Positions 7,964 to 63,121 of a stretch of DNA of 64,000 bases are shown here, piece by piece. The position numbers and the translations under genes are program-made. Source of the stretch: Lama glama (lineage: Eukaryota); assembly GCA_028534125.1 (NCBI GenBank), contig CM052816.1:38566001-38630000 (forward strand), in the 5' to 3' direction. Position 1 is the first letter of the stretch; each line of letters opens with the position of its first letter. The notes under the pieces were generated by a model. That model was not told the origin of the DNA. It saw nothing but the letters and a program-made list of their open reading frames with translations, and did not search any database.

Positions 7964-8024
7964 AAATCCAAAACAAGGTACTGTCCAGTATTTATGGACA
8001 CAGATATGTGAATTTCCTATAATT

Positions 8025-37720: not shown

Positions 37721-40700
37721 TGTATGGGGGAAGGTGGGGGAGGGTGCTGCGAAGGGAGCAGAAGCGCCATTCAAAGGGTATAGTACCCTAGGGAAATTCA
37801 GCTTGAGCAAGCCAACAATGTGCTTCCTGCTGTCGGGATCTGGGCTAAATAAGCAGCAGAAGACAGTTACTTGGACCAAAGCATTCACAGTAGACAGTGT
37901 AGTATGTTAGTTACCTAGAACAGTGATCGGTCCTATAATTGAAAAAATAGGAAATCAAGGAAAATGTACACAATATCTTAAATATTTCATTTTATACAAA
38001 AAAACACATATAATCACTATCTAATATTTTTGATGCAAGACAAGGTCTTTTCTTAACAAATGTATGGATCTGATTGTAATTCCCCATTTTCCTTCTTTCA
38101 TCTGACATGTTATATAAATCATAATAACCGATTTCTACTTAGTGTCGTTTAAGTGAGAATTTTTAAATGTTATCAAAAAACTCTGTATTTTAACAACATT
38201 TCCTCCAATTGTTTATATTTGGCTTGCTCACACCTAATTTGACAGCAAACACAGCATTTTTAGTAATTCACCTTTATCAAGCCTTTCCAGAGCATTCTAA
38301 TTAGTTATCATGGAAACAACTCTCTTTTCACACTCACACTACATTAACTCACAGATCATCAAGTAAATTATGTAATTATAATAATAATTAACACAATTGG
38401 TTTGGGAATACACTGTGGTAAGCATATAAACCAACTAGTAGTAGAACTATACAAACATACCAGAGAAGTCGAGCAGCTTAGTAGTCTGTCAGCCCTGCAT
38501 GTTCAGTAGGTCCGGGACAGAGGATAGCATGGTCTGTGGCCAGAATGGAGAGTGTTAGCTATTCTTCTGTCGGTTAAGTGCACAAGGAAGAATGTAGAAT
38601 CTGCCTTGAAAACCATTTTCTTATCTCCCCACCGTACATAGTTAGACATTTCAAAGCCTGGACCAGCCTTTTCAATCATGTATTCACATTACGTTTCTAT
38701 CAGCAGAAACCGTAATTTCAAAGCTTTGAGGCTCTAGAGATTTTTCAGACATCCTAGAAATGCAGCATTAGATCCCTAACATACAAGAAATGACATCTGG
38801 GTTCAGGTTAGAGGACTTGTTGTCCAAAGGAGTTCCATGTCAAGGAAACTAACTCTCAGTTTTAAAAAAAAATAAAAAAATTAAAATAAAAAGTAAATTT
38901 CAAAGGATTTATGTAGGATGCAAGGCAGGCAATCAGATTTCGAGTGAGGCAGAGACACCCAGGGAAAAGCCACTATCGCAGTACATAAAGGCTTCTCGTT
39001 CCTGTGCCAAACTACCTTTGAAGCCAAATTTATACCCCAGAAGATCACAGACTGATAAAGAAGGTATAAGTATTAACACCTTAGACTTGATAAAGGCCAC
39101 AAAGTTCACATGTGTTCCAAATCCAACCCCAACCACAATGACAATTCTTCACAATCTTAGAGTGTACACCAGTGGAAGACTTTTGTGGCAAATGTAACTT
39201 CATTATCCCCACAAATATTTTCACTAGGTAGGGGATAACAAATCCAAAATCCATAAAGAAGTTTTATGACTTGTACACTGGCACACACCAGCCTCAAAAT
39301 AATTTGAATAAAAATAACTCATATTTCAGATTCTTTACGATCCACAATGTAACTCTTGAAGCTTTGTTTCTTTCCGAGTTATTATGGAAAGCATCACAAC
39401 ATATTGTTATAAAATAGACTAAGATTTTTTACTATTCTGTGAGAAGATACTGTGCATTTAAAACTAAACTCAACTATTTTTAAAGAGTAATAAAGGATAA
39501 AGCAAATTATATATGCACATATATTAAAATATATAATGTATAAAACAGGTATTTTTATGCTTCCCTGTAAGGAATGCAAGAAAACTTAGGTCAGCGAGTT
39601 TGTTGTGTATAGAACTTGATTACATCAAAATAGCATTTTTTTTTTTTTAAATCATTTTAAGTTACCGGATAAATTAATAGTAATTTTTTCACAAAGAAGT
39701 GTAGCTGAATTTTAAGGAAAAAACTTAATCTGCCTTGCTATGCACTGCAATCATTTAGTGAGTGTTCCTGTTTCTTCATGAATATGATGCCCTGATGTAA
39801 CATTACATATTTAACCTACCACAACATCTGAAAGCAACAATAATCTATTAAAGAAATAGGGAAACTATGTATTTGGGTAAACACATTTCATTTGAGGGAT
39901 CCTATGTTTGTATTTTCATCAGGCAACAAGGTAAATATGTATCTAACATATTTTCTTTACAGCATACGTGATTCTCTTACTGAAAACCTTTAAATAGGAA
40001 AGGATACGATTTTGATTTAGTAAGTTTAAGTTATAAAGTAATTATAAACTCACTAACATGGATTTTCCATATTCTGGAATTGGATAAGGGGCAGTGTATC
40101 AGAGAAAATAATTAAATTTCACATGCTGAGCCAAAAGTGTCACTAATTTTGGTTAAAAAAATTTTGCCATGATTTTGGGAATACTAATAAAGCATCTATT
40201 TCACCCCCATGAGTAGGAGTATTTTAATTTTAAAGAAGTAACTGTATTCCAACTTGTCAAATATGCACTGAAGCTGGGCTTAATGCCCTAAATGCATAGG
40301 CTAGCTGTGAGGTTCTTTTGGGCAGAGACTGTTTTTCCATTTAGGCAATCCCTGAGCCTAGCTCACTTTAGATAGCTGATAGCACAGACCAATATGCTGG
40401 GCACACCTCATCTGGAAGTTAATGAATATTAGCTTTTCCCTATCAAAGGAAGAAAATCTTTCAAAGTAAGCAGTTAATATTTCTGTCCATCACAGATACC
40501 TGGAAATTTTAGCAAACACTTTGTGGTAGCTTCTAAGAGTATCTTTTCCCAGCAACAGAAATTTTAGGTGGTAAAAGGAATTCTAATCATGGGAACTATC
40601 TCAGCAAAGTGAGCAAATTAGTTGGAAGGAGCACAGGATCCCCGCTGGGATGAGGTAGCAGATAAGGTAGGTGAGCTCAGGTAGGTAGTTCCCGTAGGAA

Positions 40701-40839
40701 GGTAGGAAAGGCCAAGACTGCTGCCCCTGATTGTAACGTTTAGAACTTTTCCTGGTTTTCGAGCATCACAGTGTCACAACAAAGCACTACTGTAAAGATG
40801 ACTCTCCTAATAGTATGTAAGGTCTCTAAGCAGATGCAA

Positions 40840-41900
40840 GGTAAAAATACACTAGGCACGGGAGTGGGGAGTTGAAGGAAAAGTGTATGTCTAAGAAAAA
40901 CGATATTCTCAGGGTGTTGTAGCAAAGGGAAAAAGAATTTTAATGACAAAACAGCAAATGAAACCAAAAGTTCACAGAGTGAAAAGGAAGAAAAAGTTGC
41001 TGAATTTGGCAGTTAGGATCCTCTCAGTGAATTAAGGAAAGGGTTTCAGTAGACTTAAGATAGCAAAGCTAAAAAAAACAGTGGTTTAAAGTTAGAGTAC
41101 ATAATTATGAAGAGACAATGGTTGTTAATTCTGAATCCAAAATATTGGCAAAGGTGAAAGGGGGACAGGGAGGCCTTTGGACATTTGCAATTGCAGGGAA
41201 GAAAAGTTTGGAAGTAGAAAGACTGAAGATAATGTAGATCAAGAAAAGAATGAGTGAACAGGGTCTTTGAGGAGCAAATGGATTATCACTGGCCCTAAAA
41301 GGACAGGGCATATTTTCCTCAAACAGGAAAGGAAGCAAGGAAGAAAGACGGATATCAACAAAGACACTTGCGAGTAGTGAAGAGGGTAGGTGGGCAAAGC
41401 TTTACTGAAGTGGTGGCCTCTACTGTTCTTGTCAAACAGTGGGTAAGATTATTTGACAAGACTGGGACTGGTACAATGAGATTAAAGGATTGAAGCAATA
41501 GAAATTGAGAAAAACTGTTACTAGGAAATACATGAATAAAAAGTCCTGCTATTCACAGTACATTAAAAAGTAAATTAGAGGTTGCAGCAAGTCAAATCAT
41601 CCCATTTAGTCACTATAGATATTTGATAGCCTGGGAGCGTAAAGATGGATAAACTGGCCAGGAGATTGTTCCAGACATAGCAGATCTGGCTATAGGTTAA
41701 AGGTTTAAGACAATCTAGGGTGTAAAGACTGTATAAAGGTGACTGAGGAAAATTCTAACCTGGGCCAGGATTTAACTGCAGGCAGAATGAACAGTGACGG
41801 AGGGAAACAAGGAGCAAGGCCATTAGAGGTCTCTGTAGGGCAGAACCCAGTCAATGAGTGTAGGAGAGGATCTGAAATAGCGTGCAGCAATATTACAAGG
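40840..41900 (-). mobile_element. Old L2 fragment(s)
   Basis: Purine-rich antisense L2-like text: 'tgaatttggcagttagg', 'gggtttcagtagac'. Confidence 0.4.
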
Positions 41901-42946
41901 TAAAGGCATGGCAGCCTTCTCTTCCTAATCATCTCCCCAGAGTCTCATAAACTTTTAAAAAAATAGATGAAATAATACAATAACTTGTACTGAAAGATAA
42001 ACAATTGCTTGCCACCATAGGAAGTCTCATTGTTTGCTCTTAGAGCATTTGTAAGGAGACCTAACCTCACTAAAAAGAGAGATATATCTGCTACTACATT
42101 CCGAACAGCAGCGAGTGATTCACAGGCAACATCAAAATTAACTATATGTTAAAGGCAAGATTAATAAACTCACTTCTCTCCTGATCTAATCTGCTCACTG
42201 AGCATAAACCAGGCAGCTTTGAAACACTAATTTTCTTAGAACTCTAGAATGCTATTTTAATAAGGTAAGTTTATATTAATACAGTAAAATTACTGAATGC
42301 CTACTATGTGTGGACACACAATACTAGAAAATTCAAACACACCTTATTCCACAAAGCTCCTTTCCCACATGCATCTCTTGGAAGACACTTGAAGACTGAT
42401 CGAGGGAAAACGAAACAGGAGGAAGGGGATCAACAAAGTGCAGCTGTGACAAAGAGGTAAATTAAAGATTAGCAGTTAGGGATATAGTACATATAAGGGA
42501 AAAGGAGCTATAAGTAAATAAAATACATCCAAAGCAGAAATCCAGTTGTAAAAAAAAAAAAAGAGACAGAGAGAGAGAGAGTAGGGAATAAAATATTCAA
42601 GCCACAGTTTAACCATGAATTGAGAGGAGAACCGTAAACTGAGCACAAAAGAACACTGTCAGCTTCAATGATAAAGGGGTTACAGGTAAACAGGATAATA
42701 AGCTAACTACACTGGTTTAAGAGGACATGATTGTTCGTATCCAATCTGAAGAAAGTAATTGTCTGTACTCCAAGTATAATTTATATCACGTTTATTGAAT
42801 ATATGATCAGTATTCATGGTGCTAGAGCATTTGTGGATAAGAGAGGTAAATGAGCTGGAGGAAAATTATATTGCATTTTATATACATATGACAAATAGGT
42901 AAGTAAAGAATTAATCAGTGGAATGTATATTCCCATAAGTCATTTC

Positions 42947-43500
42947 TGTATTAGTCGTGATGTTTTTGCTTGCAATGGAAAGAAAGCAAACTCAGTTCAT
43001 TAAAGCAAAAAAAAAAAAAAAAAGTGGAGACGGCATTAATTTGCTATTTTCTATGACTAAAACTTTCAGAAGAAATGTTAGTTTCAGGTACGGTTGAACC
43101 CAGAGGCTCAAACAATATGATCAGTAGTCCATCATTTTCCATCTCTTGGCTCAGCTTTGCTTTGAGATAGCTATAATTTAAGCATAACCTCTCTATACTT
43201 TGAGTACTGACATTTCCAACTTTGTATTATCCTAACAGAAAGCATTCCACAAAAGAGAATAAATAAATAAAAAGAGTTTCTTCATTTCATGCCAAAGTTC
43301 TTCCTGGAACTGAATCTTGGGCATCTACTTCATGTACCAATCCCTAAACTGCAACTAGGAACAAAAAAATCTGCAGGAGCCACTCCCAGCTCCCTAGGTT
43401 AGAATGGAATTAGCTCAACCAAACTGAATGGACTAAATAAAGAGAAGAAGGTAGTTCCCAAAAGAAAAACTGGGTCACTGTTTTCAGAGTCACATTCTAA
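42947..43500 (-). mobile_element. Ancient MaLR/ERVL LTR (MLT1J/K- or LTR33-like)
   Basis: 'tgtattagtc...ttgcttgcaatggaaagaaa', 'tttcaggtacggttgaacccagaggctcaaaca', 'catgtaccaatccctaaac'. Confidence 0.6.
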
Positions 43501-45462
43501 ATTAGTGTTTCTCAAGATAGGTTGGAGGGGAAAGAAGTGTATCATAATCTGGGGGATCAGAGGAACAATTTCATGACAACAAATAAGGAACATGGACAAA
43601 AGGGGAAGCATGGATTGAATGAAACTAAGAACTACTTGAGATACCATCAAGTATGCCTAAATTTCTCTCAACAGTGGTATCTCAAGTCCATTTACCATAA
43701 AATAAATTCCAGGCTTAAGATATTCAGAACCAAATTAAACTACAGATTTTAATAAAGCTCTATTGCATTGTGTTACAGAAGACTCTATAGCACGTAAGAA
43801 TCACATTGTTTATACATTAATTTACTTAAGATATAATTGCATGTCATATATTGTTTACAAAATGTATTAAATAAATGTAGAATAAACATGTTTTCCCACT
43901 GAAATTGTACCTCAAGCGCTGACATTACTCATCCCCCGCCTTGATGCTGATATATGTTACATTGACAACCTACTACAATTCCTCGTCTTCTCTTACCTCA
44001 GATATAAAAGATAAATTTTCCCTGCTGATTCTGGGAAAATATCTTCCTTAACCTAATTCATCTTTCCAAATGATGTCACCACTTATTTTTAATATTAATA
44101 CTGCCATGTGTTCAATCACTCTCCTTTCCTCCTTCTGAGGGGGACTGAATACTCAAGTGCTTCTGGATCAAAGCTTATGTGCCATGGGAAAACTCACACA
44201 ACCTGGCTGTTGTGATTTTCCTGGCTTTATTTGTCCACTTTTCAATATGAACATTGTCGCCAGTGACATTGCTTACTCACATGGTACAGACGAGTGTGAA
44301 ATGAAGCCAATCCTGATCTGCTGTAACCGGTTCAATCTCCTTGTGGGAATTGCTAGCCTGTGAAGATATCTCCATCATTATCCATTTGCATCTTTTTTCT
44401 AAAGACTTACATATTCAATGAATAGAGTGTGGCTTGCACTAATTAACTTGTTATTTTATAATTATTCTTACTCTTTTTTTTTTTGGATCTATGTTTTGTT
44501 TTGTTCCTACGAAACTTTAGGCTCTTCAAGATCAAGCTTTATTTCACTTGTGTTTCTATCAGCACCTAAGAGTTCCATTCTTAATGTAAAGTAAATAAAT
44601 TATTTTAAAATAAAAAAAGAAAATGTATTAAATCATGCCTTTATAAGACTTTGGCCTACTTATGAAGATAAATCACAATTCAACTTAAGAATATTAAAAA
44701 ACCAACAGTCTTCACCATAACATCACATATAAAGTCAAAGTATATTGCAATGCAGTGAGAAAAAGGTATGAAAGATTGTATAAATGTCATCCCACATGTC
44801 AAAAAAGTGGAACATGCAATTACATGTAAGAGTTAACTTTAAGTTTTCTATATTCCATTCTAGAACACTAAATGATTTTTAAAATCATTTAAATTATGGT
44901 TATGAAAAAGGTGCAGAGTAAACTTTAAAAAAATGTTTGAGGAAGCATGAATACTTGGGAATTTTAACACTGTTCTTTTGTGTTCTGATTCAGCCATTAT
45001 TTTGGTATTTATTTGAACATTTGACTAGGGTCTTTTTCCGAGGCTGGTTTAACTTCATCAATGAAACCATCAGAAAAAGAAGTACATTAACTTTTAATAA
45101 GCTTAGATGTTATAAAGTCATATATGTACTTCACGTTTCATTTTGGAATTCTTATTTCTCTAGCCTTTTCTGTCAGGTAATCTCCAGCCTCATTTTTTCC
45201 AAGCCAGGCTTTTTCCAATCATATATACATTGTTAAATTTTGGTCATTAATATATTTGCCATAGTTATTTCCTGTTGACTTGCTTCTAGCTTCCGTTGGC
45301 TACTTTTCTAATTTTTCATGATCTGTTCAATTTAACACATCTGTCATCCAAGTGGTTAACAATGATGAACATCTTGATTTGCATGCACCAAATTTCATCT
45401 CAAAACTCACTGATTTTTTTTAAATTGAAAAGAATCAAGCATATTAAAGATTATCCCTACTT

Positions 45463-45539
45463 GTTGGTTTCCTTTTTTTTATTCAAATAGAGTTGATTAC
45501 AATGTTGTATTAGTTTCAATTGTATAGCAAAGTGATTGA

Positions 45540-45576
<37 letters not shown>

Positions 45577-47059
45577 TTTTATATGTAATATATAATATAT
45601 ATATTCTTTTTCAGATTCTTTTCCATTATTAGTACAAAATATTGAATATAGTTCTCTGTGCTATAGATTAGGTCCTTGTTGATTATTTATTATATATATA
45701 GCAGTGTGCATATGTTAATCCCAAACTCCTAAATTATTCTTCCCCTGACCTTTCCCCTTTGATAATCATAAGTTTGTTTTCTGGGTCTGTGAATCTGTTT
45801 CTGTTTTGTAAGTAAGTTCATTTGTATCATTTTTATAGTTCATTTGTATCACTGTTATAGATTTCACATATAAATATCATATACTTGGCTTTCTCTGTCT
45901 GACTTTACTTAATATGATAATCTCTAGATCCATTCATATTGCTGAAAATGGCATGGCATTTCATTATTTTTATGATTAATATTGCATTGTATATATGTAC
46001 CACATCTTATTTATCCATTCATCTGCCCATGGACATTTAGGTTCTTTCCATGTCTTGACTATTGTAAATAGTCCTGCTATGTAGATTGGGACGCATGTAT
46101 CTTTTCAAGTTAGAGTTTTCTCCGGATATATGACCAGAAGTGGGATTGCTGGATCATGTCGTAACACTATTTTTAGTTTTTTAAGGAACCTCCACACTGT
46201 TTCCATAGTGATTGCATCAATCTACATTCCCACCAATAGTGTAGGAAGATTCCTTTTTCTCCACATCTTTTATCCAGCATTTACTATTTGTGGACTTTTT
46301 AATGATGGTCATTCTGACTGGTGTGAGGTGACACCTTATTGTAGTTTTGATTTGCATTTCTCTAATAGTTAGCAATGCTGAACAACTTTTCACGTGTCTG
46401 CTGGCCATCTGTATATCTTCTTTGGAGGAATGTCTATTTATGTCTTCTGTGACTTTTTCATTTGCTTGTTTCCTTTTTTGAGGTTAAGCTGTATGAGCTG
46501 TTTGTGTACTCTGGAAATTAATCCCATGTTGGCTGCAAGTGGGGTGTTAGTCCCCACTACTACCATGTTACTGTCAATTTCTCCCTTTATGTCTGTTAAC
46601 ATTTGCCTTATATATTGAAGTGCTCCTATGTTGGGTGCATATATATTTATATCTTCCTGGATTGATCCCATGATTGTTATTTAGTGTTCTTCTTTGTCTC
46701 TTTTAATAGTCTTTATTTCAAAGTCTAATTTGTCTGGTGTAAGTACTGTTACTCCAGCTTTCTTTTGATTTCCATTTGCATGGAGTAACTTTTTCTTGTT
46801 TTTGCATTTAGCCAGTTTACCTCTTTTGGTTGGAACACTTAATCCATTTACATTTAAGGTAGTTATCGATATGTATATTCTTATTGCCATTTGGTTAATT
46901 GTTTTGGATTTGTTTTTGTAGGTCTTTTTTCCCCTTTCTTCTTCTGTTCTCTTGGGATATCATGACTACCTTTAGTGTTATGTTCGGATTCCTTTTTCTT
47001 GAGTATATATTTATTATAGATTTTTGGTTCACAGTTACCATGAGGTTTTAATATAGCAG

Positions 47060-47091
<32 letters not shown>

Positions 47092-47439
47092 CACATATAC
47101 ACACATAATTAAATTGCTGATCTCTTAATTTCAAATGCATTTTAAACACCTTGCATTAGTACTCTCCTCCCCTCATGATTACTGGTTCTGATATCGTATT
47201 TTACATCTAATTGTTTTGTGTATCCCTTAACTGCTTATTGAGGATACACACTGTACTACCTTTGTCTTTTAATCTCCCTACTAGTTTGTGTGTGGATGAT
47301 TTCCTACATTTACTGTATGTTTGCCTTTACCAATGAGATTTTCCATTTTTTAATTTTCTTCTTTCTACTTGTGGCCTTTTCTTTTCTGTGTAGAGCAGTT
47401 CCTTTAGCATTTGTTGTAAAGCTGGTTTGGTGGTATGAA
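45463..47439 (-). mobile_element. Cetartiodactyl L1, 5'-truncated in ORF1, with most of ORF2 deleted
   Basis: 3' UTR and ORF2 C-terminus (45470-46533) are joined directly to the endonuclease domain ('NIYAPN', 'TLNVNGL'), then the inter-ORF region and the ORF1 end. Probable TSD ta(t/a)ccctactt at 45452-45462 and 47440-47450. Confidence 0.9.
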
Positions 47440-48089
47440 TAACCCTACTTTTGAGGTTGAGATAGCATGAGTTCTTTATGTGGTTTTCTAGTTATAAGCA
47501 AACCCACGCACACTATGGAGACTGACACCTGATAAGGTATATTGACTATTTTTTTTAATTATTCAAGATACTACTCATTCATAAGAGAAAAAAATGGTGT
47601 CACCGTCTATACCCAATGGAAGGGATTACATTGACCATTCCAGTATTTCTGCTACATTTTAATTTTATTCTAATTCATCTATGCTTACAAGATTGTTTGT
47701 CCTTTTACAAACAAATTTTCCCTTGGACAATTTTGAAAGGCTTCACTATCCTCAAATAAATCCTTCAGGATCATTCCTTAATGGCTGTGCAGCAATATTT
47801 ACCTTGTCTCAGGCTTCCCAAGTGTCATTCACCAGACCCCTCTGATCTGACTACAGCCAATAATAAATGCACATCACCTATTTCCTCCCTATCCTTGAGA
47901 ATGTCTGTTGCTGGGCCTTGTTTAGTTGTCCTTCACAGATACATGCATTAAGACAAAGGACAGTAAGTTTTCTTCTAGAAAACTGACTCTTATCCCTCTA
48001 ATCATGCAACAGTACTCTCTATCTTCTTAATCAAACATTCTGAACCCAGTTTAACATTTTCTTGATACTCAGAGTCATCAAAAGAAAGC

Positions 48090-48320
48090 TGTTCAGTAGA
48101 GCATAACATAGCTGTAGGAGTGTATATTCTGCTTTTGCCTTGTTTAACTGTGTGACCTCATGCAAATGGCTTAACCTCCCTGGCCCTCTGTTACATCATT
48201 TATAAAATGGGAGAAACAGCAATAGGTACCTCGTAAATTTATCATAAATATCAGGTATGAACATTCACATCCAGCAAAATTCTACAACATATAAACTATT
48301 CAGAAAGTTACAGACGTTAC
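48090..48320 (+). mobile_element. MIR SINE
   Basis: 'ctgtgtgacctcatgcaaatggcttaacctccctggccctctgttacatcatttataaaatggg'. Confidence 0.75.
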
Positions 48321-48859
48321 AATGACTACCACTTTCATCGCCATCACTGTTATCATAATCATCACTTTTATTGCTATCATCAACACCATCACTGTCCTGA
48401 GTTGTGCAGTGTTGCCCCCAGGATAGCAGAGGTTTATCAGCCTGTATCCTCCCTCACCTGCAGACTGTCAGTGTCCTTTCAGCTCACCTGCATATATCTC
48501 TTTATCTCCCCTTCCACCTTCTTTTAAAATATTTTGAGACAGTAGACAAGGTAATCAGAAAACAACCTGTTCAATTTCTAATAATCCAATAATAGAAACT
48601 TAAACAATTTATGTAAGAGGACCTAAGATGCTTTCCCATGAATACAGTTCATGAGCTTTAGTACATGAACATATACGTTGGCAACCCAAAGGCCTTATTT
48701 TTTCACTTCTTGGTTCTGCATTATGATCCACACGGAGGAGATGCTAAGGTCATTTATCTCCCTGATAAGTAAGGGAATAATTGCTTGTCTGCTTTAGTTC
48801 ACACTCTGCTCAAAATATGGTACATCAAACCTCTTCTGCAATCCTAATTGTATTCCATC

Positions 48860-49400
48860 TGTTAGACAGTTAGGTAAGTGGGGACACCAGGCAGATAAGG
48901 TGAAGGAGAGGAAGGATGGTCCAGAAGATGGTGATATGCCTGGCTGCGGCATAAGGGGCTTTACTTCCACTAAATGAGTGCCAGCTGGGACCAGAGAGCT
49001 GGGACTACGCAATAGAGACAAGGACCTAACAGGACATGACCCAGTGCTCATTGTAATATAATTAGGACTTCTACTTAGGACCCCCACCTCGTGGTCTTTT
49101 CTATGTGCATCATGGGTAAGGACATGCGCAAAAGGGGATGGACATGACTAAGCACTCCAGGGGCAAGGCTGTCAATCAATCAAGAGATCACCACTAAGTG
49201 AGAGTATGAGACAGAAGGGACAAACAAAGACCAGGGCTGCCAACCTCTCTTGGATCAGCCCACCTTCTGCTCTTGGAGGTGTACTTTCACTTTGCTAATA
49301 AAATCTTTAAAAGCTTAGCTATACAGCACTTTTGTCTCCCACTTGAATTCTTCTCTTTCAAGTGAGACAAGAACCAAGGCCTTCCACTTTTGGCGTAGCA
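48860..49400 (+). mobile_element. ERV1-class solo LTR (~541 bp)
   Basis: TGTTAG...TAGCA ends, AATAAA near 49297, U5-type 'gaattcttctc...gagacaagaacc', imperfect 4-bp TSD catc/tatc. Confidence 0.8.
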
Positions 49401-52400
49401 TATCCATGCACAAAAAGGCATTACTAAATAGAAAAAAGAAACTTCTAAAAAATGAAATTTAGCTCTTATATTGGGATTGTCTTAAGCAGAACGGTTGCTC
49501 TAGTTAATTCATATTAACCCATCTGGATCAACAAAGAAGTCTTTGGTTCTCTTGAATCAAGCAGACAAAGGATAAGACCATGGAGAACCAAACTCAGAGA
49601 GTGACTCAAAATTCTAAAATGCTGAAAGGAATCCTTAAGAAACATCAGTATCAGGAGTCTCCAGGCTGTTTTAACATCAATTCTTGAACGCGTTTTCCTT
49701 TTATGTCTTTGAACAGGCTCTAATCTCTCAGGTATCACTAATTCCCACATACGTATCACACACAGAAACTAATAAGAGCATCCATAATAGAGAAACATCT
49801 TACAAACAAAATAGAAAGTGCCTTGTTTTAACTACTCATAAATTTCCCTCCAAAGTAAGCAAACAGACAATAACTTTAGGTAGCATCTCATGAAGTTTTA
49901 CATGCATTTGGGGATAACAAGAAGAAGGCCTTTTACAAAATAGTTTGTACATTTCTTTTTTTTTTTTTTTTGCCTTTTAAATACTCAGTGCAATTCTACT
50001 TAGTGTATGTCATAACGTATAACCCTGGCAGCTGGTTAATGCCTGCAAAGTCTCTTTAGAGCCACAAATTAAGAAGAAAAAAAAATCTTATGTATTCAAA
50101 GGGATGAAACAATTTTTCAATGAAATACAGGAATTAAAGTCTTGCTGGCATTCATTAAATAAAATGTCATTTCAAAAATGATATATTATTACTGATCTGT
50201 GTATACTATGGGTGTTACTTATGCCAGGATATTGAAGATTTAAACTGTTTTTTCCCTCTTGCGTTGCTAGCAATCACTTCACCATGCTTGTTTCTGTATG
50301 CCAAAAGAACTGTGCTAGATTTCTTAGCTTTGTCAGAGCTGTCCTGAAACAAACTCACTTTGCCTTTTAATGTTACTCCAAACAATGCAGTAGGTCAAAC
50401 ACATAAAGCATATATATCAAGAGAAAAAATATGAGATTAGGTGGGTATTATATAACCAGTTATATAGAGGGGCAGCTGCATTTGTGAATGCTTTGAGCTT
50501 TTTCCCTGTATTGTCCAGTGTGGGAGGGAATGTTAACATAAATATTCTAGGAATAATACATCAAATATAGGAAAAACTGAGAAAAATACCCAAATTTATA
50601 CTGTAATATTTTGGGAGCACACAGGAATAAAAATGTGCATGTGTAGTAGGTGAAACAGAACCAAATCCTCACCTTTCCTTGAAAATTCAATAAATAATGT
50701 CTTAAACTGAAATGCGATATACAGTTGTTCTTTAAAGATATGGAGGCAGATACCAAAGGAATCAGCTTGAATCATTTCAAACTGAAGAGGAGGGACTATG
50801 TGAGAATGTGAATTAATGGTCAGTGATGGTTTGACAAAGGAAACGCTAGATGATCTAATTTTTTCTTGCATCTATAAATAATTTAAAAAAGCACCACTCT
50901 ACAGTAAGTCAGTAAGTTGGCAAATTCAAATCACCAATATAAGTATGTGTTTTGCAGGCAAACAACTTCTCAACTGTGTTCATAAAACCCATAGTTAAAA
51001 CTTCTTTGCAAGTGAAATATAGTATTTCTTGCTTAACTTGGCTAAATAAGAGACTTTCGGGGTCAAATTCAAAGTAGCAATTCAAACCACTCAGTTTTTT
51101 GTTGTTGTTGTTGCATTTCACACCGTAGGTATAATTTTACAAATGGTCAAACTCCCATTTGTCACTTAGATACTGGACAGGTGAACCAGTAGTCATGTAT
51201 GGGCCATAAAAGTACAATCTTGTATGAGTCACAATGAGAAACTGTGCATCTGTGGTTCATGTAATAGCCACCCTGGGCACACTGAGGACAGCATTAATGT
51301 AGGTACAAGACCAACCAGTACTGAATGAACATTCTTTTCTGTCTTTCCCTCAATTCAAATGTTTCACCAACATCCTCAGAGCATATGTTCTTCCAGTGTT
51401 CACCAAATATATTCTTTCTCATCTTCCATAAGGTCTATCCTCAACATTCACCCACTAGCTTTCTGCTCCCATTTAAGTGTTATCTCCACCACCTCCAAAA
51501 CTTCACCATCATTCATAATGTAAGAATCACATCTTTCACCAGACTTCGTCTATACACCTATAACCAGTTTGTTTTCACTTCTCAGAAACTCTTTAGACTT
51601 TTCCACTCTTTCAATTCCTTTTGTAAAAGCAAAGCCACTTCCTTTGAGTGAGAGGTTAGGGTCTAGAGGCTTTAGGACATGGGAGTGCTAAGTGAGAGCC
51701 CTGTGAACACAGCACATTCAGAATTGAGACAAAGTCTTTAGGAGACTGAAAGGAAAGAGGGAAGGTGAGAGGAAGAAGGTCTAAGTTGTAACTGTGACAA
51801 TAAGGGGAGAGAGAAAAGCTGAAATATTTGTCAATGCTCTCTATGTTGGTTTCAGAATGGACTTTCATATCTACGTAAAAATGGCTATATTTTCCTGGCG
51901 TCTTTTCTTTTATTAAGAATGTTAAGTCAGTGACCTGTATATTCATTGGCAGTCATGTGATTTCTATTTGTGAGGAAAGTTTTTGACCTTGCAAGACTTA
52001 GAATTTTATAATCTGAATGTATTGTGTCCTCTAGCAGGGAAAAGAACACATTGCCACAACAGACCTCTTGAGTCTCATTTTCAAACTATTGCATTCAATT
52101 TCTAACAAAGAGCAAAGGATAAACAATTAAACATTACATGTAACAGAACTCTTACCCACCTGCCAACAATTAAACCCTGTAATTAAAAATTGTTGGAGAA
52201 TACACATAAGCACATCCTCAGCAGCAGTCATACCACGGTCAAAGAGAGGAAAAAAATCTTTCCCAGTAAGTTCCTTCCCTATTTCTCAGGCTGCTTTTCT
52301 TGACATTAAACAGACATGAGACTCTGTCAACTATGTTTCACTTTTTTAAGAAGAGGGAAATCCCATTCCATATCCCCTGGGAGGACTATTATATACAGAT

Positions 52401-53294
52401 GAATGTATTTTGTTATTTAGTTTAATAAATGTAGTGTTCAGAACAGATGTGAAAGCTTGAAATTGTCCAGAGAAAGGAACAGCTCAGGTGGCAATAATAC
52501 AGCCTTCCCGCCTGCTGCGCTTTCTTCGTCTTTGGAAGAGCTACATTCACAGGTGAAAAAGTATTACAGTATTTACAACCACTTTAGTCCTCACCACTGG
52601 ACTGAAGCTGACAAACGGGGTGCTAATTAGTACCAGGAGTGGAGGTGGTGATGGTGGTTTTATGACACAGTCATCTGGCCAGTAAATTGGACAAAGAGAA
52701 ACAGCACATTTACAGAAGCACTGCAAATCCAGCCATGCAACGGGAAGAGGTGACTCTGAGGGCTGGTTTAAAAAAAAAAAAAAAAGATGGATTTTCTCAA
52801 AACCAGCCTATTTGGCCTTCCCATGGCTAAGCTCTTCTGTGGATTTTCTCATGCACTAGCTACTCATATCACCATAATCCAAAAGGTTTTATTTAGAGTA
52901 CACCTGTGAACAACGGTATGCATGGGATAGAGAAAAGATGTTATTTGGTCAGAATAAATATTTGTCCTCTGAGATTACAGTTTATAAAACAACAAGTCTC
53001 AATGTAAACAATAGTCCAGTTTTGCAAGCTAAGAAGCAGTAAAACAGTAAAATCCAATCAACTAATTATTTTTGAGTATCATTAATAAAATCCATTACAC
53101 AATTCATTTTTGTAGACATGTTATAATGCTTTACTTAGTTAAACTAAAACAAATCTACAGTTTACAAATGTGGCCAGTACGTTTACATTGTCTTCATTGA
53201 TCTGGGCTCTCTAGTAGCTGTGATAAAAAGAAAGTATAATAGGGGAAAATGAATTCATTATTAGGAAAGTTGCATTCAGACTCCAGGAGCAAGT

Positions 53295-53480
53295 TACTGT
53301 GGTTAAGAACAAGAACTTTCAAATGGATTCGAGGCCAAACTCAGACACCTGTTGTGCCTGAGCCTCACTTTCTCCATCATAATATCTACTTTTGGGGGTT
53401 GCTGTGAGGATTAAATGAGATAATATATAAACCAATCAGCAGAGCTCCTGATGCATTACAATTTTTCATTAAATGATAGA
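53295..53480 (+). mobile_element. MIR SINE
   Basis: 'ctgagcctcactttctc...gttgctgtgaggattaaatgagataatatat'. Confidence 0.75.
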
Positions 53481-54816
53481 AATTTTAATGGCTGTAAGAA
53501 AGACATAACACTTTCTCCATTATTTAATCTTTTGATTGTAAAGTTTGAAGTTTATCCCTGGTTGTTCGAGGATGAAACATGATATTAAACATGATAAACT
53601 ATGCAAAATCATTTAAAAATTATTAAAAAGCTACTTATATGCTACTGCTAAAGAACATGTGTCTTTTTTTTTCTGTTAAAAAAAAAGCTTTTCAAGACAA
53701 GCTTTCCAAAAATAATTTTTATTTTCACTCTCATTCACTTCACACACATTTAATTCTCCCAAACCATCTTTCACAAAGGGCAAGATGTTTTTCCAGAGTA
53801 ACCTATATGAATCCTGACACCAGAAAATATAAGTGCAAAGTGGCTTATTGTATTGTGAGAAGCAGGATAGTGATGATTTTAATAAATCTGTTCAGCTCAT
53901 GAATATAAACTGATGAACATATCAAATTCAATGCTTAAAACTACATCTCCAGGAGGTACTGCAATGTGAAGTAACAAAGGGAACAGAGTGGGGAACTCAG
54001 TTCTCAGTGTGTATGTTTCTACATGCTCCAAAAAGTACTAGATGGTCACAGTAGGTATTAAAAAGGAAAAAAAAAACTACTATAATAAAACATGTCACAC
54101 ATTTCTATCAGGCCAGAAGCAGAGTAACCGAGTAAAAACTGGGTAGATTTGGGGAATGTACTCATTCAGTAGATATTAACATCCAAACATCCAGGCAATG
54201 TGCACAAAGACACTGGAGTTCCAGAGGAAATAGTGAGCTAAATAAATATAACTGGATACAGAGTTGTGAGCAAAACACAGTAACTGTCCTCAAGGAACTA
54301 CAATTGAAAGTAAGATTAATGTAACAGATTCTTCGTTCTAAGATTTTAAACCTCGAAATTAGCAAATAACCTATGCAAGATTTTAGAATCCAATAGATTC
54401 TAAACAAAGTTTAAATTACCACAAAAAGGTAATCATTTACACCCTTATTTTTGAATCGTAAGTCAATGATGTCTATAAAATTGAACATTAAGAAAAGAGC
54501 ACTCTTTAAATGCTAATCAGTTTGTCAAAACCAAAACTGAAATGTAGCTCAGAATTGGTTTACTAGATTTCCTCTAAAAGGAGAGCTTTTCCAAGGAATT
54601 AGTCTATCTCAAGCTATGGAAACAGAGAGGTTCCCTGTTACAACTTCCTTCTTTCCTTCAACACTGGATTTGAAGCTCTGTGCAAAAGCGCTATCCACGA
54701 CAGAGCTTGTTTACTGTGTACTGGATACTACATCAATTCCTACTCTATCCTTCAGGTCAAAAGAAAGTTACAAAGTGACTGCTCGGATGTTTTTCCCAGC
54801 AAAACTTCATCATATG

Positions 54817-54998
54817 TGATGGTTGTTCAACCTAAGAGTGCATCAAAATTACCAATGGACATTTTTAAAATTTATACATTTCTGTTCCCTACCCCCTAGA
54901 TTTTCTAACTTATTAAATCTAAGATGGAGCCTTGGCATCTGGATTTTTTAAAGCCCAACAGATGATTCTGATGCACATGCAAAATTAAGAATCTCTAT
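54817..54998. mobile_element. MER5A-like hAT-Charlie MITE
   Basis: 'tggttgttcaacct..gtgcatcaaaattacc...ggcatctggattttttaaagc...gatgattctgatgcac...taagaatctct'. Confidence 0.75.
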
Positions 54999-56044
54999 AA
55001 AACAACCAAAGGAAAACAAGTTTAAAAGTCTTCTGCCCTCCCACTACTTTTCCTGGAAAAACAGCCTATATGGAAAAAGATGCACAGCTTAACCTTGGAC
55101 AAGAATACCATTAATACATTGAATATCCATTTATATACCAAAGAGATATGTAGTTTCCTAAGCATTGAACTGAGCTGGTCGAAGCAAACTGAAGCCAAAT
55201 TACCTGACAGAATCTTCTGTGAACTGTCACATCTATCATATCCTGCCTTCATAGATAGCTGGATGATTCATTAGTTTGCAGAAAACAGAATATTCCAACG
55301 TTATCATTAAATAGTGATGATGTTCATAATAAGAGAGAATAGCACACACAGACACACACATTTTAATTCAGATAATTAAATTATTTACTTTTCCTGAGAT
55401 TCAATCCAAGAATCATAGTCTTCAAAAGTCCAAGAGCCAACTACTTTGAATAATTTCTGAATTATAAAAGAGAATCAATCCCATGTCTTGGTACATTCCA
55501 CTTCTCAGCCCGGAAACTTGCATATTGCTTTGCTGATCATATGCAATGAAAACAGCTACAGAACTGTGTCATAAAGGAATATACATGACTTTGTGAGCAT
55601 ATTATTGGGCATATTGAATAAGAGCGTGACAGTGATTGATAACACAATCATCTGAGATCTACTTAATGGAGAATAAGGTTGAAAAGAGAAAACAGAAGGC
55701 AAATTCTCAGTAAAACTGGAGTGAGCTGGGAAGTCTGGCCTGTGACTCTATCACAATTAAGTGTTTACTGCCATTAACCAACTGATCTTAAATGGGGAAC
55801 AGTCCAGTCAATTAAGTCATTTGGCCTGGTCCTATGGGAATATGAATAAATTCTTTGAAAATCAGGTGCTTGATAACTGATTGGTTCACAATATTATTCA
55901 TAAAAGGGGGCACTTTTTAGATATCATGACACATAACAGAAAGAGGTTGGTGGTCTCATATCATTTGTTAGTCAAATGTTCTTAAAAAAATTACTGTCAG
56001 TGTGTCTTTTGATAGGTATTATGCCAGTTCTGTTACGAGATAAT

Positions 56045-56280
56045 TATAAAAACAATAACAACACAATAAACTACATTGAGTACTTACATACAAGCACTAT
56101 GCTAAACAATTTACATGAAATTCTACCACTTAACCATCACAATCATATGACATGTACACCACTATTAGACCCACTTTATAGAGGAGGAAATTGAGATTTA
56201 GACATCACCGTGTCCAAGATCATAAAACTTATAAGTAATGAGGCTGGGGTTTGAACCCAGATGTGCAGAGCTGAGACTAT
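56045..56280 (-). mobile_element. MIR SINE
   Basis: 'cccactttatagaggaggaaattgagatttaga...gctggggtttgaacccag'. Confidence 0.8.
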
Positions 56281-56641
56281 AAAGTACATTTTACCTGGGA
56301 ATGTAACTCAAGGATGATGAATGTATCACAGAAACTAACTCCAATATATCAGGGGGAAAATGGAAAACATACCACAAACAAAACACAGGAAACTGTCACT
56401 TTATAAATTAAAAATTAGTTTCCTAAGTACCAATGAATTAAATGGCAACGCTATGATTGTTTTATACCCATAATTCTAACAAAAATTGTTAGGCAGATTC
56501 AATTGTATACAATATATTCTTCCTAATAAAGCCTTGGGTGTATTTCTTTTATGATGAGAATATTTTTCACACTTATGTGGGAAAAGCAAGTTAAAAGTCA
56601 AATTGGACCAAATTATAACATTCATGAATATGCAATGCCCT

Positions 56642-57319
56642 TGTGGTGATTTTAAATTATGCCTATTTTTTTTTGACATTACTCCCTTTGAAAGGTGGAG
56701 CTTTCTAGTCAATATCTTATAATAACCTATAATGGAAAATATTCTGAAAATATATATATAACTGAATCACTTTGCTATACACCTGAAACTGACACAATAT
56801 TATAAATTAACTATAAAACTAAACAAGAAAAAAGGTGGAGACTAATTGCCTGCCCTTGAATATGAGCTGGACTTAGTGTCTAACTTCTAACAAGTGAAAT
56901 GAAATTAACAAATTAACAAATAAATATGGCAGAAGTGACGGAGTATGACTTCCATTTCTAGGGCATAACAGGTATTTTTCTCTCCTTCTCTCTCCCTCCT
57001 ACTTGACTCTCTCTGAAAGCCAACTATCATATAAGGAGGAAGCAACTTCGACAGCCCTGTGGAATGGCAAAGAACCGAGGCCTCCTGCAAGGAGCCAGAA
57101 CAACGTTGCCAGACAGGCGAGTAACACACCCAGGATGCACACTCATCGGTCCCAGTCAAGCCTGCACCATAACTGTAATTTGATGAAAAACCCTTAGCCA
57201 GAACCACCTAGCTAAATTGCTCCCAAATCTCTGACCAACAGAAATTATGTAAGACGTTTACTGATTTTAGCTGCTAAGTTTTAGGGAAATTTGTTGTAAA
57301 GTAACATATAGCTACTACA
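56642..57319 (+). mobile_element. MLT1E/F MaLR solo LTR containing an L1 insertion
   Basis: 'tgtggtga' start, 'cccttgaatatgagctggacttagtg', 'agccagaaccacctagctaa', 'ctaagttttaggg'. Confidence 0.85.
56701..56830 (+). mobile_element. Extremely 5'-truncated L1 3' end with 10-bp TSD
   Basis: TSD aaaggtggag at 56691-56700 and 56831-56840; 'ataactgaatcactttgctatacacctgaaact'. Confidence 0.9.
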
Positions 57320-57859
57320 ATGATACTGTCTACATGGCCAGTGCAGTGTGACATTGTAGCAGGTGGCAGTATTGTCTCTCTCTCTGTGCATCAGTGATCC
57401 TCGCTGTGCCTCTGTTCCCCTCATCAATAAAGTGAAGAAAATATATATACCCCCAGAGTTGTAAGTATTCAATGAGATAGTTCACAAATACTTATTAGAG
57501 GAGTTCCTAACAGAGTAAGCCATAAATAAAACTTAGCCATTATTATTATTGTTGATACATTTCTCTCTTGTCTTTGGAGTCTGAATGCAACAATGGCATC
57601 ATGGAAGAAAGGAAAGTTTAACTATCTACCCACTAGTCTTGGCTCTGCTTCTTGATTACACTCCCTTTTTTCATCTCTGCAGCTCATATTTTTCATCTTT
57701 ACATAAGAGGTGGTAAAAGAATACGAAGTGATTGTGACATTTCTTCTATTACATGTTACTTCTTAAAACTTTTCCCAATTGGGCAGTTAAACACTTGGCA
57801 TATATGAAAAGTTTGGAAGAGCAGAAGAACACAGAATAAACTTTGAATTGTTAAAAACC

Positions 57860-58585
57860 TAAGGTGTAGGAAGCTTCAAGAACATAAAGAATATAGAAGG
57901 TAAAAGTAAAGTTTCTATTTCCATTAAGAGGAGAAGCAAAGATAGATTAGACATTGATGTGCGCCTAAGAAAGATGCCTGTGCACCAACCACGCGCTTTA
58001 ATGTGGACCAGCCATACAGAATGGGAAAAACAATCCCAAAGAGTTGTAGGGAAGTCCAGATTACAGAGGAACCACCTCACTTCCCAGTAGAGCCCAGAGA
58101 GGTGGAGAGGCTTCAGAATTTCCCTGGACGTCACACATGACACCGGAGCAGAGGCTGCATGGTGGGTTTAGGACAATCCGCCTCAGACAACCTCGTAGTT
58201 TCTGCTACGCAGCAGGATGATGTAGGAAGACAACAAATACAGAATGGGGACTCAGCAGACCTTAAGAGACCTATAAGCCAAAATCAAGACATAGCACAGG
58301 GACAGCAATGATCTAAAAAAAAAAAAATGCAAAGACCAAGGACCCAATGAGGTGATATACAGCTCAGCAGATACCACGCATCAAAGGATGCTCCAGTGTC
58401 AACACGTTGCCTGGACTCTTCAAAACCCCCTAGAACTCAGACTCACTTCAGGCAAGAGGTGAAAACTGCATTGACTTAGATTTTCTATTACTCAGTAAAA
58501 AGGAGGCTTAAGGTAGGTTAAAATAAGTAATAAAAAGCCAAGTTACATTTCCAGCATAACTGATTTTGTACACTGAAATTTTACA
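57860..58585 (+). mobile_element. Possible ancient Gypsy-type LTR (MamGypLTR/LTR87-88-like)
   Basis: GC-richer block ending with AATAAA and 'gttacattt...ctgaaattttaca'; resemblance only. Confidence 0.35.
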
Positions 58586-58949
58586 TCAGACTAAATGGCA
58601 TAAAATGACTTCTAACCTTCATTTAAACACTTCCGTCCTCTCACACATCTCAGAATATAAGCCACCTTTTGTTAGTCTTTATTCTAACTACTCAAAGTTC
58701 AGATTCCCTCAAATTCCTTGAAACTACTAGTCTCCCCTTCAGTTAAATCCCCTCTTTAGCAAGACTCTAAAAATATACTGATTTAAATAGCCTTTTGACT
58801 ACTACTGCCACAACCTTATACTCATGTTTCTTTTTATTAAAAGTCTGACGTGTTATTTGAAGGGACCAGGAATACTATTTACATGAAGCATGGAAAATGA
58901 TGGCAGAAAAAGAGAGACTAGGTTTTATACTTTCCTCTACCCCCAGGGG

Positions 58950-59140
58950 GCCTAGCATGGTTCCTAGCTCTACCACTCACCAACTGTGTAATTTAAGGCA
59001 AATTAGTGACCTCTCTGAACTTCAGTTATTTCCTCTGTAAAATCAAGGCAACGAATTGGTTCTCGTGACAATCCAATGAGATGCCATACGTAAAATTACT
59101 GTATGCTCTCCGATTTAGTTATTTAATAAATGGAAGCTAT
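58950..59140 (+). mobile_element. MIR SINE
   Basis: 'cctagctctaccactcaccaactgtgt...ctctctgaacttcagtt..ctgtaaaat'. Confidence 0.75.
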
Positions 59141-61230
59141 TTTTGAGCTAACACAAAGGTCTGGATGGTCAAATCAGACACATGAATCAGAGATTTTACC
59201 TAGAGTCAAGAGGCAAAGGTGAAGCAGGGAGAGCTCTGCGATACCCCACATGGCTCTAGAAGCCCTTCCTTTCCATATCCCACAAACGTTCTGGTCCACA
59301 GTAATAGCTGAGATCCCAGAGAGGATGTGTCATGAATCCACAGATTCTAGATCTGTCTGTCTTTGGCAATCCTAAAACAAAGACATCATACTACTACCAT
59401 TCCATGGATAAGGACTCCTGCTAGCAGTGTCAGGAGGAAAGTTACCAGCATTTTACAATGATGTTTACACCGGACTCCTTTCTCTGGGAGCAAATCAACT
59501 AGTCTGGTATTCTGGTAAATAATCACCAGGAGAAAAATGGGTTACAGGCTACTGGTTTTAATCCTTCCCATTTTGTACTATCCTAGTCAGTGATTACTGA
59601 ATCAATGTTGAATTAATGTTCAAACTTTATGCAGCCATAAAGTGATCTGTGACTGGAGCCCCTGACTATTCAGTCCAAATGAATCCTTCTTCGTATCTGG
59701 AGTCCTTCTCTCCTTCCTTCTCTGCAAATAATTATGAAGGTTTGGGGTTTTTCTCTCTGAAAATATGTTTAGGAAAATATTTATAACAATCTCACACACA
59801 CATACACAATGACTATTTTCCTTGTGAGCTTTAAGATATATGTTATTCATTCTTTTGCTGTGTCATATCTAAATCCAGTTTTGCTGCATAAATGTAAACA
59901 ACTATGGGTTTATGAAAGTATATAATTACTACACATTTAATGGTGAAAGAAAAAAGTGGGATTGAGGAGAAGCCATGTAAAGAAACTCATGGGAGAGACA
60001 AACTTTGAATTGTTGTTTTATGTTAATAAGGCATCAAAAGATCTGATTTTTAACAAAATCTTCCTTAGAGTAGAGAGATTTGTTCACTTCATTCAGCTCA
60101 AGTCTCTTCCCCTTGGTGGTTTGAGTGGCTCTGATGGCCCTTTAGTGTTCATGTAATGATGCCAGAGAGGAGCGTGTGTCTGAAAATGAGTACATTTCCA
60201 CCCGAGGACTTTCAAAGTACCTTTTTTCAAAAATATATTTTTAAAGTATTTTTTCTAAAGTTTTAATGAATTTTCATTACCTTTGTTTGCCCCTGGAATA
60301 GTCTTTTTTTATAAAGTATGCTAATTTCTCTCCCCTAAAAAATGTCACCCAATTATACAGTTAAGCATTTGTCCAAAAGGAAAAAAAAAAAAATCCTGAG
60401 TACTGAACATCATTATAAATCATCTTAGCTTCTTTTCTGTCCTCAGGCATCAAAAACGCAAATGGGAAAAGTCTCACTAGTTCACAGACATCTCTCACTA
60501 GTGGCATGTTATCAAATATTGTGGCAAAGAAAATGGTTAGATATCCACAGGGTTTGCAAATCCAGGCATTCCCCAAACATATTCTAACAACAACAACAAC
60601 AAAAATACAAATACCAAAGAACTCTTCTATACTTGAAATATTTTCTAAACAATTCTTATTTTCATTCATAGTCATGAATTTCACCCAGGGTAGAAGTCAG
60701 AGCCCTAGAGATCAATCAGTTCACGGCTATTAAGAAGACAAACCTCCTAACAAAAAAGAAAACTAACCCAAAGAAAAATTCAATGCCTCCAAATTTGGCA
60801 TTCATTTTTACTTCCTGTTCTACTCCTCTCATTTCATCTTTTCTCTGCTTCCACTGTAAATTATTTCTAGGAAGCAAAGGAGACATTATTGGATTGTTTT
60901 TTCTTTAAAAAAAAAAAAACAACGGATCCTTAATTATGAGAGCTAGCTAGGCTGGAACACATTGTCCACATATGTACAAATTCTTGTGTTCAGCACAGTG
61001 TGTACTTCTCTTATCTTCACAAAGGTGTGCATTTTCCCTGACTCTTTAGGCTCTAATAATAGAGAGACGGGAGGACAGGATATGCAAACAATTATATGGA
61101 AATATATCCCAAGGGTTCTTTATCAGTCTTAACTATGTGTCATTTACTAAAAGAATAAAAGCAATGCATAATAAATCTTTGTTGCTTATCCAGATTGTCT
61201 ACGATGAAAAAGTTAATATAAATTACAATT

Positions 61231-61354
61231 GGGGGCGGGGGGTAATTAGTTTTGTTTGTTTGTTTGTTTGTTTATTTAATGGAGGTACTGGGGATTGAAC
61301 CCAGGACCTCATGCATGTTAGGCCTGCACTCTACCCCTGAGATATACCCTCCCC
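61231..61354 (-). mobile_element. Camelid tRNA-derived SINE (Vic-1-type)
   Basis: Minus strand reads GGGGAGGGTATATCTCAGGGGTAGAG...CCTGGGTTCAATCCCCAGTACCTCC (Pol III A/B boxes), then (AAAC)n and TAATTACCCCCC. Degenerate TSD taaatta. Confidence 0.9.
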
Positions 61355-61616
61355 ACTAAATTATATTTTTTAAATCATTTGTTTAAAATTCTATGTTTGT
61401 ACACTTTGAAAGCATAGAACTACAAGGAATAGAAGCTAGCTACTATGAGAATAATAAATGGGGGTGAGTTATGTAGAAAATCTAGAAGAGAATTAATAGA
61501 AGTACACAGAAGTAAAGGAAAAATAATTTCCCAGGGTTTTTAAACAGATTAAAATATTGCATATACTATCTTTGCACAAAACTTTAAAAAATCTAACTGC
61601 TGACAAGATACCTTAC

Positions 61617-61651
61617 CTGGTCTAACAGTTTTCATTACTTTCTTTTTCTTC
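61617..61651 (-). other. Candidate 35-nt alternative microexon of an unidentified gene
   Basis: 'tgttctactag|GAAGAAAAAGAAAGTAATGAAAACTGTTAGACCAG|gtaagg': strong donor, purine-rich body, upstream CTACTAAT x3 and GCATG. Confidence 0.6.
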
Positions 61652-61685
61652 CTAGTAGAACAGTAGCATGCCTCGTGGTGATCGT

Positions 61686-61719
61686 ATTAGTAGATTATTA
61701 GTAGTAGTTACATTAGTAG
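61686..61719 (-). promoter_or_regulatory. Cluster of three QKI/branch-point-type CTACTAAT motifs
   Basis: Plus-strand attagtag at 61686-93, 61697-704 and 61712-719, 35-68 nt upstream of the 3' splice site. Confidence 0.6.
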
Positions 61720-63121
61720 GACAAAATACAGCTTCAATATTGATGGGCTAACTTTTGATTTTCGTAATGTTATTCATTTACTTTTCCGTGTACTGTTTCA
61801 TTTCAGGTCAGGCAAATATCTTCCTAAATCTAGACTTATGGGCCCTTTTAATCAGCAAAATAATCTATTATATAAATAAATGCATTAAATATACCACCTA
61901 GTTCACATTTAGTGGATGATTTAAACTAGAGATAAGACACTATCTTGTTACATGTTTGTGTGCGTATTATTTTCGTCTTTTGATATCTGTTATTCTTTAG
62001 AAATGCACTTATTGGGGTAATGTACTGAAAACATCTCCCAAAAGTGAGTTTTGACAAGAGATTTGGGAAAGAACAGGGGGCCTTCTTGCCAGATTGCAGG
62101 TGCAAGGAAGAAGGGCCAAAGTTAGGTCAGAGTCAGGGGAAGTAGGAGGCAGGTGTGAGAGACAGGACAGCAGCAAAAAGCTCACTAGGAGGAAAGGGAT
62201 AGACATGGAAACAAAGAGAGGAAGCAGGTGTCAAGAGAGCGTCGTCAGTAAGAGTGAGTGCCTGCTGGGAGACATCTGCAGAAAACATCTGCAGATACTT
62301 CTCCATGACTGCCAGGAAGGAAGATCCCTGCCACAGAGACACACAAAAGGCTTAACGACCTGTGGTATGTGGTTGAAGGGTATGCACAATGCTCAGTGCA
62401 CCAGCCTCCAGTTACTCTGTGACAACACCAGTTCCACATCCCCACCACTTCCCTCCCTCGTGGAAAACATTTGTTAAAGCATTTAGTATTGATCAAAACA
62501 TAAGGAAATTCTTTGATTCATCTCCTTCGCCAAAACAAGCCGGCCTTATTTCACCATCAGTTGTCTCAGAAAAAAAGAAAAAAAGATTCCTTCCAGAGGG
62601 AGACAGAAAATAGCTCTGATCCATTTATCAAGTAACTGTTTTGCTTTGCTTTTATACCCGAGGTTAGAAAAATTCTGCCAACGCTGCCCTGTCAGACTGG
62701 CATTGAATCCAACAGTAGGTATGACAAAGGTACTAGTGGCTGGAATGGTTCACTGTCTAAAGTGCTACTACCGATGATGGCACCAGCCACCTGGAAGACT
62801 GAACAAGTCATTAGAAGATCAACTGTGGAAAGGACACCCCGCCCTGCTTTGTTCCCCTTGAACATCTGATCCTTCCCGTGTTCCACATTACCCCACTTAC
62901 AGCTCATTCAGGGCTAATGTAGCAGAGAAGAAATGTGGGGAAGTCAGAGACAGAGAGAGAAATCTTTCAAAAAAACATTCTCTATCCTGATAAGTGGAGT
63001 TCATAGTTTTGAAAAAGAAAAACATGACACAGATTTCTGTGTACATATGACTACCCTTGGCCTATTCAAGTCATTCAGTCAAATACAAATCGCTCCTCAG
63101 GGACTGAGTGCTTTTGGTGGG

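Follow-up and report, generated by a model that had tools for sequence, protein, structure and literature searches.

A candidate frame-breaking 35-nt exon behind three QKI/SF1 elements in a very long llama intron, probably of FER

Results

Splice signals and sequence of the candidate exon

We analysed a window of 64,000 nt of Lama glama DNA (contig CM052816.1, positions 38,566,001 to 38,630,000). On its minus strand a TAG, 35 nt and a GTAAGG follow one another, exactly as the original prediction had it, with the acceptor TAG at 61654-61652 and the enclosed exon at 61651-61617 (Table 1). What is observed is a set of motifs, and the exon is a candidate exon throughout this text. Splice sites were scored with a matrix of our own that uses general splice-site frequencies. 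By this matrix the donor reaches a score of 12.5, joint top among the 3,486 GT sites of the minus strand, and the probability that a donor scoring ≥12 lies 40–130 nt downstream of a randomly chosen position is about 0.004. The acceptor is weak by the same matrix (rank 271 of 4,115). A second AG between the branch elements and the TAG may serve as a weaker acceptor, which would give a 55-nt form of the exon (61617-61671, minus strand) with one open frame. The predicted RNA fold at the exon (z = +0.90) contains no stable structure and leaves the branch region unpaired.

The three translations that had been proposed were reproduced: EEKESNENC* in phase 0, xRKRK* in phase 1 and xKKKKVMKTVRP followed by a frameshift in phase 2. 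Whatever the incoming phase, inclusion disrupts the reading frame, by in-exon stops in phases 0 and 1 and, after eleven residues, by a frameshift in phase 2.

Table 1. Features at the candidate exon, with positions counted from the first letter of the window.
Feature	Position	Strand	Remarks
CTACTAAT copy 1, QKI/SF1 element	61712..61719	-	candidate branch A 61713 (-62)
TAAC QKI half-site	61707..61710	-	-59 from acceptor
CTACTAAT copy 2, QKI/SF1 element	61697..61704	-	candidate branch A 61698 (-47)
CTACTAAT copy 3, QKI/SF1 element	61686..61693	-	candidate branch A 61687 (-36)
Flank with retained CpG in AT-rich DNA	61641..61800	.	four CpG in 150 nt, 33% GC
Second AG (GAG), possible weaker acceptor (55-nt form)	61672..61674	-	between branch elements and TAG
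Weak 3' splice site, ends TAG	61652..61671	-	pyrimidines 11/17, purine-interrupted tract; holds GGCATG, TGC
Candidate cassette exon, 35 nt	61617..61651	-	direct sequence reading
Strong 5' splice site CAG/GTAAGG	61611..61619	-	splice matrix score
Downstream intron of host gene	1..61616	-	no coding exon recognised; host may be FER intron 13 or 17

Motifs upstream of the exon

Three exact copies of CTACTAAT, starting at 61719, 61704 and 61693 on the minus strand, share a span of 34 nt with one TAAC half-site, so that both tandem elements and a UAAY half-site are present; this cluster, too, was seen where it had been predicted. In the 64-kb window the minus strand holds these three copies, all at this site, and the plus strand one. 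Relative to the acceptor the ACTAAY motifs lie at -66, -51 and -40. Enrichment of ACUAAY is described in PMC13004596 for the zone 63–20 nt upstream of exons; the motifs at -51 and -40 fall inside this zone and that at -66 just outside it. The candidate branch adenosines at -62, -47 and -36 fit the published QKI/SF1 positions.

An RBFOX-type module had also been proposed, and a GCATG is indeed found at -20 to -16 of the acceptor. The base before it is a G, however, which yields the non-optimal GGCATG, and the pentamer is common (49 occurrences on the minus strand of the window). The hexamer TGCATG is absent, so that the exon lacks the upstream UGCAUG of the RBFOX-repressed class, and no (T)GCATG occurs within 300 nt downstream of it. 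A TGC at -17 to -15 lies in the weak pyrimidine tract, weak evidence as a mere trimer; UGC in a weak tract is a feature of SRRM3/4 targets (PMC10551640). The TGC within the non-optimal RBFOX pentamer could equally be an SRRM3/4-type enhancer.

Intron context and neighbouring DNA

No coding exon was recognised in the window among 231 long frames or 199 splice-bounded candidates, which places the candidate inside an intron. The nearest exon on the upstream side is thus at least 2.3 kb away, and the next one downstream more than 61 kb. Kinase and SH2 motifs were likewise absent from all six frames of the window. The minus strand shows a T-A skew of +0.042 and a G-C skew of +0.031; it carries more T6 runs than the plus strand (253 vs 129) and fewer AATAAA (62 vs 100) and GTAAGT (11 vs 23). 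An excess of T, G and poly-T together with depletion of AATAAA and GTAAGT is expected on the sense strand of an intron, and on account of this asymmetry the minus strand was taken as the sense strand.

Rfam, run over about 97% of the window, returned nothing beyond one tRNA-like SINE. This tRNA-derived element (61280-61351, minus strand, Rfam tRNA 44.8 bits) has an A-rich tail with ATTAAATAAA, which lies on the sense strand 340 nt 3' of the donor and is a possible cryptic poly(A) site. Three further exon-like patterns were noted. At 1.2 kb upstream (62901-62913, minus strand), a 13-nt candidate between TAG and GTAAGT stands behind a long tract of pyrimidines; it may be due to chance. A 67-nt candidate at 33789-33855 (minus strand) has two open frames and the top combined splice score (18.9) among minus-strand candidates of ≥45 nt, and lies in the region of the CpG-richest 2-kb bin. 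The top plus-strand splice score (21.5) belongs to a 105-nt candidate at 32360-32464, antisense to the presumed gene and probably a chance pattern. The window also contains an assembly gap of 500 N (26037-26536), a 49-bp unit in 2.2 copies (19449-19554) and, at 15000-17450, 29100-29800 and 46000-47100, what we take from the plus-strand translations to be L1-like fragments.

Projection onto human 5q21

The window is presumably preceded by CYFIP2, CSNK1A1, ABLIM3, CD14 and SLC22A4, at distances of 35.2, 29.8, 29.6, 23.3 and 17.0 Mb, respectively; these placements are provisional, as is the hg19 coordinate of the SLC22A4 anchor. The other anchors were compared with the hg19 spans of PMC6028027 (Table EV2), positions inside genes being approximate. 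The anchors are collinear with hg19 in reversed order, with segment ratios of 1.32–1.44, and the site projects to chr5 108.0 Mb, or to 107.1 Mb when the provisional SLC22A4 anchor is left out. An exon on the minus strand here implies a human gene on the plus strand. FER (hg19 108.08–108.52 Mb, plus strand) needs a ratio of 1.35–1.38, CAMK4 one of 1.22–1.26, which is lower than in any of the segments measured. The distance would suit FBXL17 (next to 107.1 Mb), but this gene presumably lies on the wrong strand. FER introns 13 and 17, each of which we take to be near 80 kb (78–80 kb), would need below-average compaction to exceed 64 kb, which counts against FER. Taken together, the synteny inclines us, at slightly better than even confidence, towards FER at human 5q21 as the host gene. 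No FER exon or FER isoform tail was mapped in the window; of two tail matches, one belongs to a fragment of L1 and the other is weak (45 vs 39 shuffled).

FER proteins and their isoform tails

In FER proteins the SH2 domain ends at K552 with a phase-0 junction, followed by a 19-codon exon, and the junction at residue 683 is in phase 2, both phases being judged from isoform tails. The proteins compared numbered 356 (150 representatives, 100 matches, the best 120 of 1,218, and 15 members per cluster, e.g. 15/32, 15/73 and 15/101). Neither exon peptide was found in these FER-family proteins among the matches listed (0/356, two of the 356 being unrelated), and a stop just past an intact SH2 domain by way of a cassette exon was absent from the same matches. 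As decay substrates often have no protein annotation, the peptide result carries little weight. The phase-2 frame was also compared with cluster representatives of 78–2000 aa, none of which had three common 5-mers. P0479 and P0482, listed inside the FER cluster, are succinyl-CoA:3-ketoacid CoA transferase-like, so that this clustering holds errors. After residue 683, isoforms of FER from cattle, buffalo and pangolin (P0441, P0456, P0467, P0502) have a similar alternative tail, which suggests that intron 17 contains an alternative last exon that is conserved. This shared tail was not found in the window, which speaks mildly against intron 17 as the host intron.

Searches in splicing tables, literature and sequence collections

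A 35-nt exon of FER or CAMK4 was not found in the supplements of PMC13004596 (11 of 20 files and part of file 15), PMC5989265 (12 of 15 files), PMC7782589 (4 files), PMC4317164 (4 of 5 small files) or PMC6028027 (12 of 19 files). For mouse Fer, the same files of PMC5989265 list four cassette exons, with lengths of 174, 175, 193 and 50 nt; the 50-nt exon was considered as an orthologue and rejected on its length and its likely position in intron 10. The files covered of PMC7782589 and PMC6028027 hold no splicing row for FER or CAMK4, which is to be read in view of partial, annotation-dependent tables and a host gene deduced from synteny. Neither a description of the 35-nt exon nor a link between QKI and FER splicing was found in the full-text literature searched, which includes few subscription papers, and the available parts of the QKI papers PMC4821877 and PMC4872085 state nothing on CAMK4 splicing.

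In metagenome contigs the exact exon pattern gave 0 matches and a degenerate one 28, none of them alike beyond the pattern, as is expected of chance. A list of sequencing runs contains 15 rows in 5 studies that hold part of 61450-61900. Six RNA or probable-RNA runs among them hold 0.22–0.37 of the words of this segment, which is word content and not splicing evidence; such a share is expected when the whole segment is present at about 3% divergence, and the exon by itself would account for about 0.01.

Discussion

A putative target of QKI/SF1 branch-site competition

With moderate confidence we read the locus as a minor, regulated, QKI-repressed and frame-breaking cassette (poison) micro-exon in a very long intron, probably of FER. 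The candidate is probably real, and would then be a previously undescribed target of a published class of mechanism. A motif cluster and a donor strength beyond simple chance, a spacing like that of RAI14, a branch region left unpaired in the predicted fold, the position on the apparent sense strand and CpG retention in the flank favour a regulated exon; the extra AG between branch elements and acceptor counts against it.

[quoted passage not shown] According to PMC3983035, a branch point becomes repressible by QKI, through competition with SF1, when it has an ACUAAU and a UAAY half-site close to it. According to PMC6028027, QKI-driven skipping maps to binding ≤100 nt upstream of the acceptor. 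The original prediction of QKI repression at branch-like ACUAAY agrees with the sequence and with the mechanism as given in these three papers. The candidate resembles RAI14 exon 11 in its tandem ACUAAY at branch-point distance before a cassette exon, any of which could be the branch site. It differs in having three ACUAAU and a UAAC half-site instead of two ACUAAC, and in being a frame-breaking exon of 35 nt. This layout matches the QKI/SF1 branch-site competition of RAI14 exon 11, of whose class the candidate is a putative member.

NUMB exon 12 is reportedly in-frame, unlike the candidate. The systems of PMC3983035 (the MINX ACUAAU reporters, NUMB exon 12) have in common with our locus an ACUAAU close to a UAAY half-site; NUMB itself uses AUUAAC and an exonic site. 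Non-symmetric micro-exons and poison exons (PMC4317164 and PMC10551640) are alike in having ≤51 nt, a length that is no multiple of three, a stop or frameshift and a weak tract with UGC; in the candidate a stop or frameshift follows inclusion in all three phases. With 35 nt it falls within the 51-nt definition of a micro-exon and outside that of 3–30 nt (PMC9929638), being longer than the 30-nt class.

In the mechanism we propose, exon definition would come from the near-optimal donor. In tissues rich in nuclear QKI (muscle, mesenchyme), the tandem elements would be covered by a dimer of QKI that blocks the entry of SF1 and U2, and the exon would be skipped. In cells with little QKI (most neurons, some epithelia), one of the elements would act as branch point and the exon would be included, possibly aided in these cells by the UGC in the weak tract. 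The transcript with the exon would then be degraded or yield a truncated protein.

Chance, slippage and other readings of the locus

The exon could instead be a pseudo-exon, that is, a decayed CTA/TAA slippage repeat upstream of a strong donor that arose by chance, unspliced or spliced as noise and with no selected function; we consider this rather unlikely. Among 300 order-3 Markov simulations of the 64-kb strand, three ACTAAY within 30 nt appeared in one and three CTACTAAT in none, under a null that takes no account of slippage. The real window contains three exact 8-mers over a similar span at 5 loci and three exact 6-mers at 19, and all four 8-mer loci other than the candidate site are simple repeats; with slippage, triple k-mers are thus commoner in real DNA than the Markov null suggests. 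CTACTA occurs five times within 70 nt, acceptor included, the acceptor is weak, and the exon is missing from every protein set and table searched, among the matches and files listed above. TRF reported no tandem array at the site. A slippage origin demands, moreover, that the repeat unit exactly equals the QKI/branch motif, on the sense strand and at branch-point distance, that a joint-best donor lies 35 nt after a YAG, and that CpG is retained. The CpG count of the flank is reached by only 0.35% of 3,397 overlapping low-GC 150-nt windows (the candidate locus included), an indirect hint at constraint or low methylation. As a rough estimate the product of these would be about 1e-4 per window, which is unusual, yet not negligible for a genome-wide scan, and such coincidences are expected when many windows are scanned.

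The consequences for the transcript bear on whether a QKI-repressed exon would act through decay. In intron 13 of FER, EEKESNENC* would be added directly after the SH2 domain (residue 552) and the whole kinase lost; inclusion from intron 17 would truncate the kinase midway. For intron 13, the 5 nt to the donor and the 57 nt of exon 14 would place the stop 62 nt ahead of the next-but-one junction, with more junctions after it, so that decay would be expected by the criterion of a stop >50–55 nt before a later junction. The first proposal, that the exon changes the C-terminus, is weakened: the frame is broken in all phases and several junctions follow in the best-fitting gene, so that nonsense-mediated decay is likelier than a C-terminal switch. 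A swap of the C-terminus needs a next exon that is last or nearly last, and the candidate genes offer none. A QKI-repressed exon that escapes decay, either a penultimate C-terminal-swap exon or a 5' UTR or non-coding RNA exon of another gene in the interval, is improbable in our view. The motif evidence would be equal for it, the host gene is placed by synteny, and the purine-rich sequence gives plausible short tails; on the other hand, the plus-strand genes near the projection with long enough introns (FER, and CAMK4 with intron 1) have many downstream exons, and the comparison with representatives of 78–2000 aa turned up none that has the phase-2 tail.

Least probable is an alternative last exon that starts at the acceptor, runs on across the donor and stops at a poly(A) signal close by, such as that of the SINE tail: ATTAAATAAA lies on the same strand, and FER isoforms truncated at the K552 junction through species-specific last exons are common among the matches listed (a short novel ending in 14 of 174 tails, and 7 more that stop there), but a donor as strong as this one, unsurpassed on the strand, speaks for an internal exon and for suppression of cleavage by U1, and none of the FER tails listed matches the exon peptide.

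Possible meaning for FER and for QKI-dependent splicing

Alternative FER products with domain loss are known. Mouse Fer isoform 3 (P0164, P0333), which we take to be iFer, diverges inside the SH2 domain. FerT keeps the kinase and drops the N-terminus (PMC10832218).

As the mechanism class has already been published, a regulated poison exon at this locus would add a new target and no new principle. With its three identical elements the exon would, if real, be an unusually clean natural reporter of SF1/QKI branch-site competition. Should FER be its host, the exon would switch on and off, by splicing, a kinase that serves cell adhesion and migration (PMC13272830). It is doubtful, though conceivable, that the kinase output of FER is under direct QKI control by way of a conserved, undescribed micro-exon and its triple branch-site switch. 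Were this true, QKI-low cells (neurons, epithelia, germ cells) would destroy their FER mRNA or make a kinase-less F-BAR-SH2 scaffold ending in EEKESNENC, and the rise of QKI in EMT and muscle differentiation would be tied to FER activity.
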